Assembly (NCBI GenBank): GCA_007376405.1
Contig: VMGD01000001.1
Span: 66,891 to 130,890, forward strand
Direction: 5' to 3'
Origin: Microgenomates group bacterium Gr01-1014_7
GTDB lineage: Bacteria; Patescibacteriota; Microgenomatia; Daviesbacterales; UBA10151
Length of the DNA: 64,000 bases
The notes under the pieces: generated by a model
The model's input: only the letters and a program-made list of their open reading frames with translations
What the model was told of the DNA's origin: nothing
The model's database searches: none
Translations under genes and position numbers: made by a program
Shown: piece by piece, positions 32,103-37,948 of the stretch
Layout: each line of letters starts with the position of its first letter
How positions within the stretch are numbered: the stretch's first letter is position 1

Positions 32103-33194
32103 ATGGAAGAAATTAGGTCCAAATTGGAAGAGTTAAAAAAAAGATTTAATAAAATATCCCAGTCAATTGACCGGGACAATTTGCAAAAAGAAATTAGAGA
32201 GCTTGAGGCCCTGACTATGAAAGAGGGCTTTTGGAATGATCAAATTCAAGCCAGAAAAGTTTCCCAAGACCTTGCAGATAAACAAAAGCAGCTGGAAAGC
32301 TTGGAAAATTTAGAAAAAAGAATCTCGGATGCACTGGAGCTATCAGGAGATGCAGAAATGCAGGAAGAGCTACAAGAAGAAGCCAGTAGAATTGAGATTT
32401 TGCTTAAAGATTTTGAATTAAAAACTTTCCTGTCCGGGCCATATGATAAATCAGAAGCCATAGTTTCTATCCATTCAGGGACAGGAGGGGTGGAAGCCAT
32501 GGACTGGACAGCCATGCTGGCCCGGATGTATCAGAGATTTTTTGAAAGAAAGGACTGGAAGTTTGAAGTAACCGATGAAAATCCCGGTGAAGAAGCAGGC
32601 TATAAAACTTTTTCCATGATAGTCCATATCCCTTTTGCTTATGGCAATTTAAGGGGCGAGGCAGGAACTCACCGCTTGGTCCGCCAATCCCCTTTCAATG
32701 CTGACAAACTCCGCCAAACTTCCTTTGCTTTAGTTGAAGTTCTGCCGGTTATTGAAGATTCCAAAGAAATAGAAATAAAAGATGACGAAATAGAGTTTGA
32801 TGCTTTCAGATCGGGTGGAGCAGGTGGGCAGAATGTTAATAAAGTTTCAACAGCAGTCCGCCTTAAACACAAACCATCCGGTATTGTAGTTACCTGTCAA
32901 ACTGAGCGGTCTCAACTGCAAAATCGGGAAAACGCTTTGAAAATGCTTAAGGCAAAAATATGGGAACGCCAGCAAACTGAAAAACAAACACAAACCTCGC
33001 AATTAAAAGGGGGTAAAACCCAGGCCTCCTGGGGAACTCAAATCAGATCATATGTCCTGCACCCCTATCATATGGTTAAAGATTTAAGAACCAATGTTGA
33101 GACATCAGACACCGATGCTGTTTTAGATGGAGACTTGACTGAGTTTATTGAAGCAGAACTTAAGGGGCTTGCCCCGAGCGAAAGAGAGGGGTAG
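32103..33194 (+). CDS. prfB: peptide chain release factor 2
   Basis: 363 aa. SPF specificity tripeptide ([11 protein letters not shown]) and GGQ motif ([14 protein letters not shown]). Encoded in one continuous frame with no internal UGA / +1 frameshift site. Confidence 0.85.
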
Positions 33195-33230
33195 ACAAAT
33201 TACTTAAGTTATGGTTAATATAGAAAGTAC

Positions 33231-33674
33231 ATGGAAAAAATAGATTCTGAAGGAGTAGAAAAAATTACCAGGCCAGTTCTAACTGAAAACCCAACCAGGT
33301 TACTTATGGGGGTAGTTATAGCGGCTTTAGTTTTAGGAGGGGTTACAGGCTATATACTTTCCACCAAAGGCAACTCTTCTTCCTCAGTTTCAATTCCGGG
33401 AACTGCCGCAAAAACTGCCCAACAGGATACCCGCACCTTTAAAGATTTTGCCGAAGGCACAGTTAAGGCCCGTCCCCAGCCCTCGGATGCAGGAGAATAT
33501 GTAGAGGGGACTCATATTCTGGAGCGTGCAGGAGCAGTACCTGTAGCTCTTACTTCTTCCGTGGTTGATTTATCAAAATATGAGGGTAAAAAAGTTAAGG
33601 TTTACGGTGAAACTCAAAAAGCTTTAAAAGAAGGCTGGTTAATGGATGTAGGTAAAGTAGAAGAGATTAAATGA
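33231..33674 (+). CDS. hypothetical membrane-anchored protein
   Basis: 147 aa. Single N-terminal TM helix (LLMGVVIAALVLGGVTGYIL), then a Ser-rich linker and a small soluble domain. Immediately upstream of ftsE. Confidence 0.45.
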   Translation: MEKIDSEGVEKITRPVLTENPTRLLMGVVIAALVLGGVTGYILSTKGNSSSSVSIPGTAAKTAQQDTRTFKDFAEGTVKARPQPSDAGEYVEGTHILERAGAVPVALTSSVVDLSKYEGKKVKVYGETQKALKEGWLMDVGKVEEIK

Positions 33675-33677
33675 GAA

Positions 33678-34358
33678 ATGATTTTATTCGAGTCGGTTTC
33701 AAAGAAATTCGGTTCTACAATTGCCCTTGATGATGTCTCTTTAGAGATAAAACAGGGGGAATTTGTTTTTATTGTTGGACCCTCCGGTGCCGGCAAATCC
33801 ACACTTCTTAGAATTCTCACCCGGGAAATAGTTCCATCCTCAGGCAGGGTAAAGGTGGGGGAAATGGATCTTACAAAAATAAAAGACAAAAATGTTCCGC
33901 ATTTGCGAAGGAAAATCGGGGTGGTTTTTCAGGATTTTAAACTGCTGGATGACCGGACGGTTTTTGAGCAGGTGGCTCTGACTTTAGAGGTCTTAGGTAA
34001 AACCGATGAGGAAATAGGAAAGCAGGTTGAACATATCCTCAAACTGGTAGAAATCTGGGGCCGCCGCAATTTATTTCCCAGACAGCTTTCAGGAGGGGAG
34101 GCTCAGCGAACTGCAATTGCCAGAGCTGTCGTGGGAAAACCGGATATTCTTCTGGCTGATGAACCAACAGGCGATTTGGACCTCAAAACCGCTTGGGGAG
34201 TAATCCAGCTTTTAAATGAAATTAATTCCTGGGGCACAACTATAGTCATGGCCACCCATAATCAGGAAATTGTTAATACTTTGAAACGCCGGGTTATAGT
34301 ATTAAAAAGGGGCAAAATCGCAAGCGATTCTAAAGTAGGAAAATATACAATTCATTAA
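33678..34358 (+). CDS. ftsE: cell division ATP-binding protein FtsE
   Basis: 226 aa. Walker A GPSGAGKST, ABC signature LSGGEAQR, Walker B ILLADEPTG. Followed by ftsX. Confidence 0.85.
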   Translation: MILFESVSKKFGSTIALDDVSLEIKQGEFVFIVGPSGAGKSTLLRILTREIVPSSGRVKVGEMDLTKIKDKNVPHLRRKIGVVFQDFKLLDDRTVFEQVALTLEVLGKTDEEIGKQVEHILKLVEIWGRRNLFPRQLSGGEAQRTAIARAVVGKPDILLADEPTGDLDLKTAWGVIQLLNEINSWGTTIVMATHNQEIVNTLKRRVIVLKRGKIASDSKVGKYTIH

Positions 34359-34361
34359 AAT

Positions 34362-35234
34362 ATGAACCGAAGCCTTACGTTTACTAAAAGAAATATCAGA
34401 CGCACTCCGATGCAGGCCATTGCCGCCTCAATGGTCATGTTTTTGACCTTTTTGGCATTACTTATCTTTATTCTGGTAGCCGCAGGATCACAAGCTTCTC
34501 TAAAATATTTTGAGAGCAAGCCGCAAGTGATTGCCTTTTTTAAGGAAGGCACCACCGATGCGGATGTTTCAGCCATAGAAAACGCTCTATCCCAGGAATC
34601 AAGAGTAACCAAGACCAAATTTGTTTCAAAAGAGGAAGCCTTAAAAATTTATCGGGAGAAAAATAAAAACGATCCTGCTCTTTTGGAACTTGTTACCGCC
34701 AGTATCCTACCCGCATCTTTGGAAATATCAACCAAAGACCCAAAGGATTTACAGCCGATTGCCGAAATCCTGAAAAAAGAACCGGCTGTTTCCGAGGTGA
34801 TTGTGCCGGAAGATGTAGTCCAAACTCTAACTTCTGTTACCAGCATTATCAGAATAGTAGGGTCTATGATAGTTGGATTTTTGATGATCTTTGCTACCCT
34901 TGTTGTGGTAATGATTATCGGATTTAAAATCAGACTTAAAAGAAACGAGATAGAAATTATGCGGCTTTTAGGCGCGTCCCCTGCTTTTATCAGAAACCCA
35001 TTTCTTCTGGAAGGAATTTTTTACGGCGTAGCCGGAGCATTTTCCGCCTGGGCAGTCACTTATCTTTTGCTTTGGTACTTTACCCCGTTTTTACAAGGAT
35101 ATTTAGGTGAAGTTAAGCTTTTGCCTGTGAATCCTCTATTTATGCTGGCAATTCTTATTTGCGCACTGCTGGCTGCCTGTATAATTGGCGGACTGGGATC
35201 ATTTAGTGCAGTCAGAAGATATCTTAAGATATGA
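34362..35234 (+). CDS. ftsX: cell division permease FtsX
   Basis: 290 aa. N-terminal TM, a large extracytoplasmic loop, and three C-terminal TM helices (FtsX topology). Directly downstream of ftsE. Confidence 0.8.
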   Translation: MNRSLTFTKRNIRRTPMQAIAASMVMFLTFLALLIFILVAAGSQASLKYFESKPQVIAFFKEGTTDADVSAIENALSQESRVTKTKFVSKEEALKIYREKNKNDPALLELVTASILPASLEISTKDPKDLQPIAEILKKEPAVSEVIVPEDVVQTLTSVTSIIRIVGSMIVGFLMIFATLVVVMIIGFKIRLKRNEIEIMRLLGASPAFIRNPFLLEGIFYGVAGAFSAWAVTYLLLWYFTPFLQGYLGEVKLLPVNPLFMLAILICALLAACIIGGLGSFSAVRRYLKI

Positions 35235-35246
35235 CCTGTCTATCAT

Positions 35247-36395
35247 ATGAAACGAACAATCTTCATCCTGTTTATTCTGTTTTCTTCACTTCTCACTTAC
35301 CCCATCTTTGCCCAATCTCCTGATGATCTAACCAAACAGCTTCAGGAAAAACAGACAGAAATTCAAAAACTGGAAGAGGGCCTGCAGAATGCCAGGAATC
35401 AGGAGAAAACTTTAAAATCACAGCTTAATTTAATTGACGGCCAGACCAAAGTCACTACCTTAAAAATCGAAGAAACCAATTTAAAAATAGAAAAGCTAAA
35501 AAGAGAAATCTCCGACTTATCAGGAAGAATCAATCGAATCTCAACAACCCTAGATGCACTCTCGGAAATTCTGCTTAAAAGAATTATCCAAACATATAAG
35601 TATAGCAATGCTGTTTCAACTTTCGATCTAATCTTTTCCTCACACGGCTTTGCCGAGCTTTTGGAAAGATTAAAATATATTCAGGTAGCTCAAACCTATG
35701 ACAAAAAGAAATTATATGAACTGCAGGCAACCAAATTTGCCTACAATGAACAAAAACAAGACAAGGAGACGAGACAACAAGAGGCTGAAAAATTAAATAA
35801 AGACCTGGAAGTTTATAAAAAACAGCTGGATGAACAGAAAAGGGCCAAGGATGAGCTTTTGAGAGTTACTCAAAATGATGAAGCCAGGTTTCAGCAGGAA
35901 CTGGCAAGGCTTCGTGCAGATATTGCCTCTATTTCTCTGGCATTATCCAATGTTGGAGCAAAAATCGGACCGGTTAATAAAGGAGATACAATTGCAGCAA
36001 TGGGATCAACCGGCTGTTCAACAGGACCGCATTTACATTACGAGGTTTATGAAAATGCAAAAATAGAAGGGGGAAAAGTGACAGGAAATAGAGTGAATCC
36101 TCATAACTTCCTTGACAGCGGCAAACTTGGTTCTCCATTGCAAGGTTATCCCGGTGACACAACCATTACCACAGAATTTGGGGAAGTATATTTCTTGGGA
36201 ACACATACAGGTTTGGATATAGCACCAAAAAAATATGAAGGAGTTGGCAGGGGGATTTTAGCATCGGAAAAAGGAGTTGCATATTCCGTATCTGCACCTT
36301 GCAGCTATAACATTTCAGGTGGATCATCTGTTGGTAAGGGGGTAGTTATTGACCATGAAAACGGCACAGTCACTTTATACTGGCATATCCTCTGA
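35247..36395 (+). CDS. coiled-coil M23 family metallopeptidase (EnvC/PcsB-like FtsEX partner); M23 motifs in circularly permuted order
   Basis: 382 aa. Signal peptide, then about 200 aa of coiled coil (EnvC-like), then a C-terminal M23 domain. 'GSTGCSTGPHLHYEV' (nt about 36000-36048) precedes 'ITTEFGEVYFLGTHTGLDIA...GKGVVIDHENGTVTLYWHI' (nt about 36180-36390). In canonical M23 these come in the opposite order. Confidence 0.7.
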   Translation: MKRTIFILFILFSSLLTYPIFAQSPDDLTKQLQEKQTEIQKLEEGLQNARNQEKTLKSQLNLIDGQTKVTTLKIEETNLKIEKLKREISDLSGRINRISTTLDALSEILLKRIIQTYKYSNAVSTFDLIFSSHGFAELLERLKYIQVAQTYDKKKLYELQATKFAYNEQKQDKETRQQEAEKLNKDLEVYKKQLDEQKRAKDELLRVTQNDEARFQQELARLRADIASISLALSNVGAKIGPVNKGDTIAAMGSTGCSTGPHLHYEVYENAKIEGGKVTGNRVNPHNFLDSGKLGSPLQGYPGDTTITTEFGEVYFLGTHTGLDIAPKKYEGVGRGILASEKGVAYSVSAPCSYNISGGSSVGKGVVIDHENGTVTLYWHIL

Positions 36396-36416
36396 TATTT
36401 AACTATTATTAAGGTA

Positions 36417-37532
36417 GTGAGAACACTAATAATTTTCTTGCTTCTTTTTTATCCAGTAGCACCTGTCTTTGCTGCAGACCCACCTATTCTGACAAGTCCT
36501 TCAAATAACTCTACTGTCGCCTCTTCAACTCTAAACTGGCAAGCACCACTCTATCCAGTTTGCTCAAACTATGATGCTTACAGGGTACAAGTAGATAATG
36601 ATCCTTCGTTTCCAAGTTCAAGTATATATAGAAATATCTATACAAAAAATACTTATTACACTCCACAACTTACTTTGGGTACTTGGTACTGGAGAGTTAT
36701 GGTAAGAGATGAAACATGCAATAATTGGAGTAGTTGGAGTACTGTTTGGTCTTTTATCCTAGCAACCTCTACCCCATCACCTACTCCGACCCCTTCATCC
36801 ACACCAACATCATCCTCATCTACTTCATCTAACTCTTCCAGCTCATCAGCTTCCACGTTTACTATCTCCAACACTCCCTCACAAATTAATTCCGACCAGT
36901 CATCTAATGTTTCAGTTAATTTAGCTTTACCAGATAATCCTAATACCTCATTTTATCTAAAAGGTGCCTTTAAAAAATCTGATGGTTCCAATTATTTTGG
37001 ACTGACTAAAGTTTCCGGCAGCTGGATAAAAAATGGCAGTACATATTCTAATCAATATCCCGTCAAAACTAATTCATCCGGTAATTGGTCAGGCAATTTG
37101 GAAATTCAACCGGATGCTGATGACTCCGGTTTTACAGGTAGCGATGATTATATTTTCAAAGTAGGTAGATATACATCATCTGGTTCAGGACCTACTTGGA
37201 GCAACGAAACAACTATTAAAATAGTCGCTGCCTCCACCAATCAAGGTGCTACAACTGAAACATCATCTAAAACTTCCGACTCACCAACCGTAACTTCCCC
37301 ACCGCAAACTGCAAAAGCTATTCCCGCAAATTCTTCATCAAAAAATTCCGGTAATGTTGAGTATCACATTGCATCTGTTGCTGCAGTTTCCAGCGGATCT
37401 GCCACACCATCTACTGTAGAAGTTAAAAGTGAAAAAAGGCCAAACTTCTTACCCTTTATTGGTGGAGTGCTAATTTTGGCTGGACTTGGCTCTTTAGGCT
37501 ATATATACTTACGCAGTAAAAAAATCATATGA
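36417..37532 (+). CDS. secreted Ser/Thr/Pro-rich cell-surface protein with C-terminal TM anchor
   Basis: 371 aa. Signal peptide (MRTLIIFLLLFYPVAPVFA), a beta-rich N-domain, a long S/T/P linker (TSTPSPTPTPSSTPTSSSSTSSNSSSSSAS), a second domain, and a C-terminal TM (FLPFIGGVLILAGLGSLGYIYL) with a basic tail. Confidence 0.6.
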   Translation: MRTLIIFLLLFYPVAPVFAADPPILTSPSNNSTVASSTLNWQAPLYPVCSNYDAYRVQVDNDPSFPSSSIYRNIYTKNTYYTPQLTLGTWYWRVMVRDETCNNWSSWSTVWSFILATSTPSPTPTPSSTPTSSSSTSSNSSSSSASTFTISNTPSQINSDQSSNVSVNLALPDNPNTSFYLKGAFKKSDGSNYFGLTKVSGSWIKNGSTYSNQYPVKTNSSGNWSGNLEIQPDADDSGFTGSDDYIFKVGRYTSSGSGPTWSNETTIKIVAASTNQGATTETSSKTSDSPTVTSPPQTAKAIPANSSSKNSGNVEYHIASVAAVSSGSATPSTVEVKSEKRPNFLPFIGGVLILAGLGSLGYIYLRSKKII

Positions 37533-37948
37533 AAAAATATATTACCCGCTCGGAAACAGAAACCAAAAAACTGGCCGAAAGATTTGCCCAAAAATTTTCC
37601 GGTAGAGTCATTACCTTAACAGGCGAACTCGGCGCAGGAAAAACCACTTTTGTTCAAGGCTTTGCCAGAGGACTGGGAATTAAAGAAAAAATTATCTCCC
37701 CCACTTTTGTCCTAATCCGCCAGCACAAAATCCCAAATTCTTCAAAAGCACTTTTTCATATTGATCTTTACAGACTGGATGATATTTCACATATTGACAA
37801 TTTGGGCCTTAAGGAAATTCTAGAAAATCCCGATAACATAGTGATTATTGAATGGCCGGAAAAAATAAAGAAATTTTTACCAAAAAATCCTACCTGGATA
37901 ACCTTTGAAACTTCAAAAGATAATAAAAGGGAAATTATTGCCAATTAA
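37529..37948 (+). CDS. tsaE: tRNA threonylcarbamoyladenosine biosynthesis ATPase TsaE
   Basis: 139 aa. The 'LTGELGAGKTTFVQGFARGLGI' P-loop is diagnostic of TsaE/YjeE. Confidence 0.8.
   Translation: MKKYITRSETETKKLAERFAQKFSGRVITLTGELGAGKTTFVQGFARGLGIKEKIISPTFVLIRQHKIPNSSKALFHIDLYRLDDISHIDNLGLKEILENPDNIVIIEWPEKIKKFLPKNPTWITFETSKDNKREIIAN

Follow-up and report, generated by a model that had tools for sequence, protein, structure and literature searches.

A circularly permuted M23 peptidase domain in a coiled-coil protein encoded beside ftsEX in Microgenomates bacteria

We analysed a 64,000-nucleotide stretch of genomic DNA from Microgenomates group bacterium Gr01-1014_7 (contig VMGD01000001.1; hereafter the window, in whose own numbering all its positions are given), with a focus on the gene that follows ftsE and ftsX. 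This gene encodes a protein of 382 residues that combines a signal peptide, a long coiled coil and a C-terminal M23 peptidase domain, and the conserved blocks of the M23 domain occur in swapped order. Our reading, to which we assign a probability of about 0.8, is that the protein is a secreted, FtsEX-coupled and catalytically active peptidoglycan endopeptidase of EnvC/PcsB/RipC-type architecture, and that its catalytic domain is a true circular permutant of M23. The permuted domain is a real and conserved topological variant of a known enzyme in a known system, and it is apparently undescribed.

Results

The permuted M23 domain

In canonical M23 domains, the HxxxD motif comes first along the chain, followed by Y-x-H and then by HxH. 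The gene in the window and the parts of its M23 domain are laid out as follows:

35247..36395, + strand: gene for the coiled-coil protein with the permuted M23 domain, 382 aa plus a TGA stop (from the open reading frame (ORF), Pfam and AlphaFold2 (AF2))
35946..36113, + strand: domain block 1, residues 234-289, equivalent to the C-terminal third of canonical M23
36003-36044, + strand: GSTGCSTGPHLHYE, residues 253-266, from the translation
36030..36038, + strand: HxH motif with H262 (catalytic) and H264 (zinc ligand), from conservation
36114..36134, + strand: connector D290-S296, DSGKLGS, between NPHNFL and PLQG...ITTEFG, joining the old C- and N-termini
36135..36392, + strand: domain block 2, residues 297-382, equivalent to the N-terminal two thirds of canonical M23
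36204..36218, + strand: HxxxD motif HTGLD, residues 320-324, with the zinc ligands H320 and D324
36375-36392, + strand: LYWHIL, residues 377-382, followed by the stop
36384..36386, + strand: H380, third catalytic histidine (the histidine of Y-x-H), two residues ahead of the C-terminus

The chain runs from HxH to HxxxD to Y-x-H and then to the stop codon, which departs from the canonical order, and the HxxxD motif, the HxH motif and the additional catalytic histidine are all in place within a domain of 149 aa. For the roles of H262 and H264 we rely on established M23/LytM knowledge, which we take to hold here. Against the Pfam family Peptidase_M23 (PF01551), the 382-aa protein scores E 5.2e-14 (52.6 bits against a cutoff of 28.7), with the match split over two stretches. 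Block 1 consists of a beta-hairpin, GSTGCSTGPHLHYE, an inserted hairpin and NPHNFL, and aligns with positions 132-174 of the canonical M23 profile and with residues 346-398 of P0124, a coiled-coil M23 protein of canonical order. Block 2 aligns with profile positions 49-126 and with P0124 residues 281-356.

Pairwise alignments give the same picture. In BLASTP against P0124, the coiled coils are collinear (query 2-219 with P0124 9-232) and are followed by two segments in exchanged order, query 223-274 matching 346-398 and query 299-381 matching 281-356. The order is likewise reversed against chains of known structure: for Gp16 (9m7n_A), query 317-381 corresponds to 805-860 and query 229-268 to 860-896, and for 9gy1_A, query 345-381 corresponds to 55-91 and query 243-268 to 102-127.

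A profile of the family, made from 77 homologues, was also aligned to one of canonical M23 domains. In its native order the family profile aligns in two swapped pieces (E 3.9e-17 and 8.5e-15). When residues 295-382 are placed ahead of residues 234-294, the two pieces merge into a single alignment of 115 columns with a probability of 99.9, E 3.9e-31 and 46% identity, which spans the artificial junction between TLYWHIL and SNVGAKIG with just one one-column gap. By this profile comparison, the similarity to canonical M23 is far beyond chance. The single re-ordered alignment also means that no M23 element is missing or duplicated. In the canonical chain, the residues equivalent to the new termini are neighbours, in the loop just past the Y-x-H histidine. 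By these alignments, the domain is an exact circular permutation that has been cut in the loop after the catalytic histidine. An earlier sequence-only reading of this stretch had proposed a swapped block order with all zinc ligands and catalytic histidines retained. The alignments to structural chains and the re-ordered profile bear out the order, all five residues (H262, H264, H320, D324 and H380) were found and are kept in 76-77 of 77 family members, and the approximate block coordinates it gave were correct to a few bases.

The same reading had looked to structure prediction for a decision on the fold. A domain-only AF2 model built from 13 sequences is confident and compact, with a predicted local distance difference test score (pLDDT) of 85.4 and a predicted template modelling score (pTM) of 0.84, and is all-beta after one helix. 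The 7-residue connector is conserved and has a pLDDT of 89-94. A Foldseek search of this domain model against the PDB returned no M23 chain and nothing below E 0.09, a result that is uninformative for a permuted chain because Foldseek compares chains in sequence order and uses a structural alphabet that takes into account how far apart in sequence neighbouring residues lie. The model strongly suggests that the chain would rebuild the M23 sheet and zinc site.

Two cysteines in the domain deserve mention. C257 (36015-36017), the Cys of GCSTG in block 1, is present in 77 of 77 family members, and C352 (36300-36302), in the loop ahead of GKG in block 2, is a Cys in 50 of 77. Canonical relatives have a Cys pair that is placed differently. 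A disulfide could connect the two blocks of the permuted domain.

Conservation and distribution of the family

Four of the five zinc-binding and catalytic residues (H262, H264, H320 and D324) are kept in 77/77 family members, and H380 is kept in 76/77, as is the D369-H370 pair. The five residues are also invariant over 40 representatives of clusters at 50% identity. The permuted order is not unique to the gene in the window; it defines a whole family. A word-indexed search retrieved 17 proteins with the same permuted order, all of which end in WHI[LP]. The homologues that the sequence-only reading had anticipated are numerous: in a scan of one genome per GTDB species, at least 294 species genomes encode a collinear permuted relative, a lower bound because the two motif patterns used in the scan are specific to the close subfamily. 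Carriers with informative names are Candidatus Daviesbacteria, Curtissbacteria, Levybacteria and Woykebacteria, all of the Microgenomates group of the Patescibacteria.

An exhaustive hidden Markov model search of 1.84 billion cluster representatives extends the family further. About 55 of the top 150 clusters at 50% identity share the architecture, defined as a length of 360-420 aa and one uninterrupted stretch over profile positions 1-144 that ends at the C-terminus. The permuted order persists in divergent members with 27-38% identity, which also stop two residues past the histidine (YGHMQ, YLHLQ, YAHMK). Among 80 copies examined, 78 have the WH-x-x-stop end, and the stop codons are TAA in 51, TAG in 23 and TGA in 6.

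Two observations concern the database records themselves. Many contigs that are fully syntenic with Daviesbacteria and Curtissbacteria loci have been deposited as metagenome-assembled genomes (MAGs) of 'uncultured Gammaproteobacteria', 'Pseudomonadales' or 'Deltaproteobacteria', and such proteobacterial labels on the loci related to the window (L001-L080) look wrong. In P0045 (361 aa), the N-terminal ~150 residues resemble a YchF/OLA1-type GTPase and are followed, in one fusion, by the last part of the coiled coil and the permuted M23 domain; P0045 is probably a chimeric assembly or gene call.

Architecture of the 382-aa protein

Ahead of the M23 domain, the protein consists of the following parts:

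35247..35312, + strand: signal peptide, residues 1-22, MKRTIFILFILFSSLLTYPIFA followed by QS, with a hydrophobic N-terminus and an AxA-like end; predicted cleavage site
35322..35612, + strand: coiled-coil helix alpha1, residues 26-122, an AF2 helix that aligns with the coiled coil of canonical coiled-coil M23 proteins
35613..35648, + strand: hairpin tip, residues 123-134, the AF2 break between helices 26-122 and 135-233, with a short helix at 125-130
35649..35945, + strand: coiled-coil helix alpha2, residues 135-233 (AF2), with strand 236-243 directly after it and no separate linker

The full-length AF2 model, built from 40 sequences, has a pLDDT of 84.7, with 88-97 in the blocks of the M23 domain. 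The signal peptide region is modelled as a helix at residues 3-15 followed by a low-pLDDT segment at 17-23. The coiled coil (residues 26-233) is predicted to be a two-helix hairpin of antiparallel helices of ~98 residues each. The residues that flank its tip, Y117 and Y144, are near-invariant among the 40 cluster representatives, and Pfam CC_PcsB gives a weak match at residues 101-163. By analogy with related systems, the tip is the presumed FtsX-binding end. A second conserved feature of the coiled coil is the motif LLxxTxNDExxYQ at residues 204-216 of alpha2, in which L204, L205, T208 and E212 are near-invariant among the same representatives. The model shows no separate autoinhibitory helix: alpha2 continues unbroken to residue 233, with the pLDDT falling to 67-78 over residues 201-240, a stretch that includes the motif.

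In a Foldseek search of the full model against the PDB, the top match is EnvC of the V. cholerae FtsE/FtsX/EnvC complex (8tzl_E, E 7.5e-5) and the second is E. coli EnvC with the FtsX periplasmic domain (6tpi_A, E 1.7e-4). PcsB (4cgk), the RipA N-terminal domain and RipC (8idc_E) follow at lower ranks.

Gene cluster and genomic context

The gene lies in a run of seven + strand ORFs (32103-37948) that are spaced by 3-37 nt or overlap by a few bases. Its neighbours are:

32103..33194, + strand: prfB (release factor 2, RF2), the upstream neighbour in most of 80 related loci; PCRF/RF-1 domains on the equivalent in locus L088
33231..33674, + strand: gene located between prfB and ftsE for a 147-aa protein with a membrane helix at its N-terminus, present in related loci
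33678..34358, + strand: ftsE, ABC ATPase of FtsEX, 226 aa (Pfam ABC_tran, E 1e-36)
34362..35234, + strand: ftsX, membrane subunit with an extracellular domain, 290 aa (Pfam matches)
36417..37532, + strand: Ser/Thr-rich secreted protein, 371 aa, from the ORF list
37529..37948, + strand: tsaE, from the ORF list

The ORFs of ftsE, ftsX and the hydrolase are all on the + strand with gaps of 3-12 nt, and the hydrolase gene starts 12 nt past ftsX. In the FtsE translation the Walker A motif (GPSGAGKST), the signature (LSGGEAQR) and Walker B (ILLADEPT) are all legible. FtsX matches Pfam FtsX_ECD at residues 55-146 (E 9.6e-19) and the FtsX permease family (E 2.8e-12). The order prfB, 147-aa protein, ftsE, ftsX and permuted hydrolase recurs in nearly all of the 80 loci, where these are long enough, and the same gene order surrounds divergent members with 27-38% identity (L084, L085, L086 and L088). 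No amidase gene is found in the conserved cluster, either in the window or in the related loci. The proposal that ftsEX and a coiled-coil hydrolase form the conserved arrangement known from EnvC, PcsB and RipC is sustained by the AF2 architecture, by the structural matches to these three proteins and by the adjacency to ftsX in nearly all related loci.

Discussion

Enzyme or activator

All five zinc-binding and catalytic residues are under strong selection, and for this reason the permuted domain is most probably an active endopeptidase and not a degenerate amidase activator. Several points weigh against our reading of the protein as an FtsEX-coupled, active enzyme. We infer enzyme activity and zinc binding of the permuted domain, as well as FtsX binding and the regulatory effect of the new attachment point. 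A restraining-arm-like segment may lie within residues 201-240, where the AF2 model has low confidence. At least one divergent permuted coiled-coil M23 protein, P0153 (L087:5636-6733), is not encoded beside ftsEX, and the canonical-order relative P0167 adjoins a class A penicillin-binding protein gene and not ftsEX, in the sole such locus examined. Coupling to FtsEX is therefore not universal in the wider group. The neighbours of P0153 are a YHS/HTH regulator, a P-type ATPase, DUF305 proteins and a ZIP transporter, which together make up a metal-homeostasis neighbourhood.

Among the alternatives, the one that survives best is that the permuted domain is a non-catalytic regulator that activates a separate amidase or autolysin, as the degenerate LytM domains of E. 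coli EnvC or Caulobacter DipM do. In overall architecture the protein resembles EnvC, which also gives its best structural matches, and EnvC-type LytM factors are frequent partners of FtsEX (PMC11627006). EnvC, however, lacks the zinc ligands, whereas here every ligand and every catalytic histidine is kept in 76-77 of 77 members. That the ligands are intact here and lost in EnvC argues for an enzyme rather than an activator. Moreover, the protein is not an EnvC orthologue: the NCBIfam EnvC model NF008644 matches the coiled coil only, at 29.3 bits against a cutoff of 270, and the conserved cluster lacks an amidase gene that such a regulator could act on. We consider a purely regulatory role unlikely.

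Somewhat less probable still is that the two blocks do not form one M23 domain within a single chain, and instead are two decayed remnants or the halves of a domain-swapped dimer that assembles in trans on a dimeric coiled coil. Remnants are conceivable given that proteins with tandem M23 domains are known, and the Foldseek search with the monomer domain model gave no M23 structures in the PDB. However, the 149 residues hold each M23 element once and the re-ordered alignment is one piece; the connector is conserved and confidently modelled, in a monomer domain with a pTM of 0.84; and the strict conservation of catalytic residues speaks against decay. The remnant version, which the sequence-only reading had named as a way in which it could be wrong, is contradicted by the confident single-domain AF2 model, and the re-ordered alignment together with the single-domain length led us to reject two decayed half-domains.

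An artefact of frameshift, misassembly or stop read-through is vanishingly improbable: the next ORF (36417-37532) does lie in the same frame, just a TGA and seven sense codons away, but 294 independent genomes have the same collinear order, 78 of 80 homologues stop two residues past the histidine using three different stop codons, the downstream ORF has its own signal peptide and RF2 is encoded four genes upstream, so that the genome count and the conserved stop position rule out both read-through and the 3'-end frameshift for which the earlier reading had suggested a check.

Comparison with known systems

The protein shares with EnvC of E. coli, V. cholerae and P. aeruginosa (6TPI, 8TZL) a signal peptide, an antiparallel two-helix coiled coil, a C-terminal M23/LytM domain and the link to ftsEX. 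The LytM domain of EnvC has the canonical order, lacks zinc ligands, activates AmiA/AmiB and is kept in check by a separate restraining-arm helix (PMC11627006), whereas here the domain is permuted, the ligands are intact and alpha2 enters the domain directly. As in PcsB of S. pneumoniae, CwlO of B. subtilis and RipC of M. tuberculosis, the coiled-coil protein is here most likely itself the hydrolase, and the likeness extends to the structural matches with PcsB (4CGK) and RipC (8IDC) and to the weak CC_PcsB match. The catalytic domains of those proteins, in contrast, are CHAP or NlpC/P60 cysteine peptidases and not M23 zinc peptidases.

Further counterparts are canonical coiled-coil M23 proteins from metagenomes (such as P0124, P0159, P0167 and P0171), which probably belong to other Patescibacteria. 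They are of the same length class and have a homologous coiled coil with the TxNxExxYQ motif, intact ligands and an insertion after HLHFE. They differ in their normal block order and in a linker of ~25 residues that leads from the coiled coil to the N-terminus of the domain, on its far side. With the wider PF01551 family (LytM, lysostaphin, ShyA, MepM and Csd3), the permuted domain shares HxxxD, HxH and the extra catalytic histidine at highly significant similarity; unlike in these enzymes, the block order is permuted, with the new termini in the loop after the catalytic histidine.

There is a precedent for natural permutants among peptidoglycan hydrolase superfamilies. A passage in PMC6403190 refers to circularly permuted NlpC/P60 families (YaeF/poxvirus G6R, LRAT-like) and credits them to Anantharaman and Aravind 2003; these differ from M23 in both fold and catalytic mechanism. 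We found no report of a permuted M23/LytM domain in the literature covered, which leaves out most subscription journals, so that absence is not proof. Neither Pfam nor NCBIfam has a model for the permuted arrangement: the Pfam match falls into two fragments, and all NCBIfam models stay below their curated cutoffs.

Few modules of cell-wall hydrolases and their regulators have been studied as much as M23/LytM domains (lysostaphin, LytM, EnvC, NlpD, ShyA). That the fold tolerates new termini beside the active site is useful for the engineering of lysostaphin-type enzybiotics and for domain annotation. The family also amounts to a natural experiment on FtsEX signalling, in which the same coiled coil and the same catalytic fold are joined at a different attachment point, and so offers a direct test of how coiled-coil movement turns a hydrolase on. 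For the Microgenomates, which are uncultured and ultrasmall and whose division machinery is almost unstudied, it provides a lineage-wide marker and a handle on cell division.

Proposed mechanism

A mechanotransmission and restraining-arm model has been described for EnvC, PcsB and RipC (PMC11627006). In the protein described here, the chain enters the M23 domain at the beta-hairpin that canonically comes after the catalytic Y-x-H histidine. It then passes through the HxH motif, the normal C-terminus (NPxxFL), the 7-residue connector, the normal N-terminus and HxxxD, and ends two residues past the histidine. If the solved FtsEX complexes are a guide, the coiled coil would place its tip between the two FtsX extracellular domains, and ATP hydrolysis by FtsE would be passed along the coiled coil and switch the hydrolase on at the division site. 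From synteny and architecture, we infer this binding of the tip to FtsX and the ATP-dependent activation.

The permutation moves the attachment point, such that helix alpha2 leads straight into a strand of the hairpin ahead of HxH, beside the active-site histidine, and both new termini flank the active site. Since alpha2 enters this strand directly in the model, control likely operates by direct rigid mechanical coupling, possibly in place of a separate restraining arm. More tentatively, and in our view rather doubtfully, the permutation may be adaptive and not neutral. It joins alpha2 to the beta-hairpin beside the catalytic histidine and leaves a free C-terminus two residues past H380, and movement of the coiled coil, powered by FtsEX, would then act directly as a gate on the active site, in place of the autoinhibition by a restraining arm in EnvC, PcsB and RipC. 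The arrangement would have become fixed in a large part of the candidate phyla radiation. If true, this would be a distinct way in which an ABC mechanotransmitter acts on a cell-wall hydrolase.

Origin of the permutation

The permuted domain could have arisen if a coiled-coil M23 ancestor of canonical order duplicated its M23 domain in tandem and then lost the outer halves. Natural proteins with two or three M23 domains in tandem exist (P0054, P0057, P0065, P0088 and P0052), and the permuted profile aligns unbroken over their domain junctions. From these alignments, the tandem proteins are plausible models of a duplication-then-truncation intermediate. No tandem-M23 intermediate was found at an ftsEX locus, which is why the duplication route is put forward conditionally, and no canonical-order gene was found at any ftsEX locus as a direct ancestor.

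A similar domain in cyanophage ejection proteins

When the domain model was compared with a viral structure library by Foldseek, the best collinear matches were internal virion (ejection) proteins of cyanopodoviruses, with E values from 1.6e-4 to 8.7e-3. The example used here is:

L089:25177-25779: Synechococcus phage P60 gp33 (AF338467.2); BFVD entries A0A510E7V3_3 and H6WFX6 likewise

The C-terminus of P60 gp33 reads GYGSTGPHLDVK ... SFGVDFATP ... IELPDGRRYAFVHGTVPNA-stop. In the C-terminal ~135 aa of these phage proteins, GSTGPHLD comes first, then GxD and then Y-x-F-x-H near the stop, which is the same block order as in the bacterial family. The phage domain differs in its putative ligands, with HLD for HLH and the His of HxxxD replaced or shifted, and in its setting, at the end of a ~1000-aa protein after a lysozyme/transglycosylase module, without a coiled coil and without ftsEX. 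A profile of five phage-domain sequences gives a collinear alignment to the permuted family (probability 79%, E 1.7e-5) and aligns to canonical M23 solely as two swapped pieces. Pfam has no match at the phage C-terminal domain. Given the collinear alignment, the permuted topology may extend beyond the bacterial family. The phage domain is possibly a second, undescribed permuted M23-like family, judging from the aligned motifs, and may have arisen separately from the bacterial one. A phage origin of the exact bacterial domain was considered and rejected, as the matches that tblastn found among 50,697 phage genomes were partial and confined to the HxH block.

Other proteins of the gene cluster

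Two further proteins of the cluster are conserved alongside the hydrolase. The 147-aa protein (33231-33674) ends 3 nt ahead of the ftsE start and occupies the same position in almost all related loci, with 33-78% identity. Searches of Pfam and NCBIfam matched no family. It may be a member of the operon and an uncharacterised FtsEX partner in this lineage. The 371-aa protein (36417-37532) carries a signal peptide and long tracts rich in Ser, Thr and Pro, and has a membrane anchor at its C-terminus. Its ORF begins 21 nt past the hydrolase gene in the same frame, separated from it by the TGA and seven sense codons, and many Daviesbacteria loci have it in the same place, with the hydrolase gene on one side and tsaE on the other.

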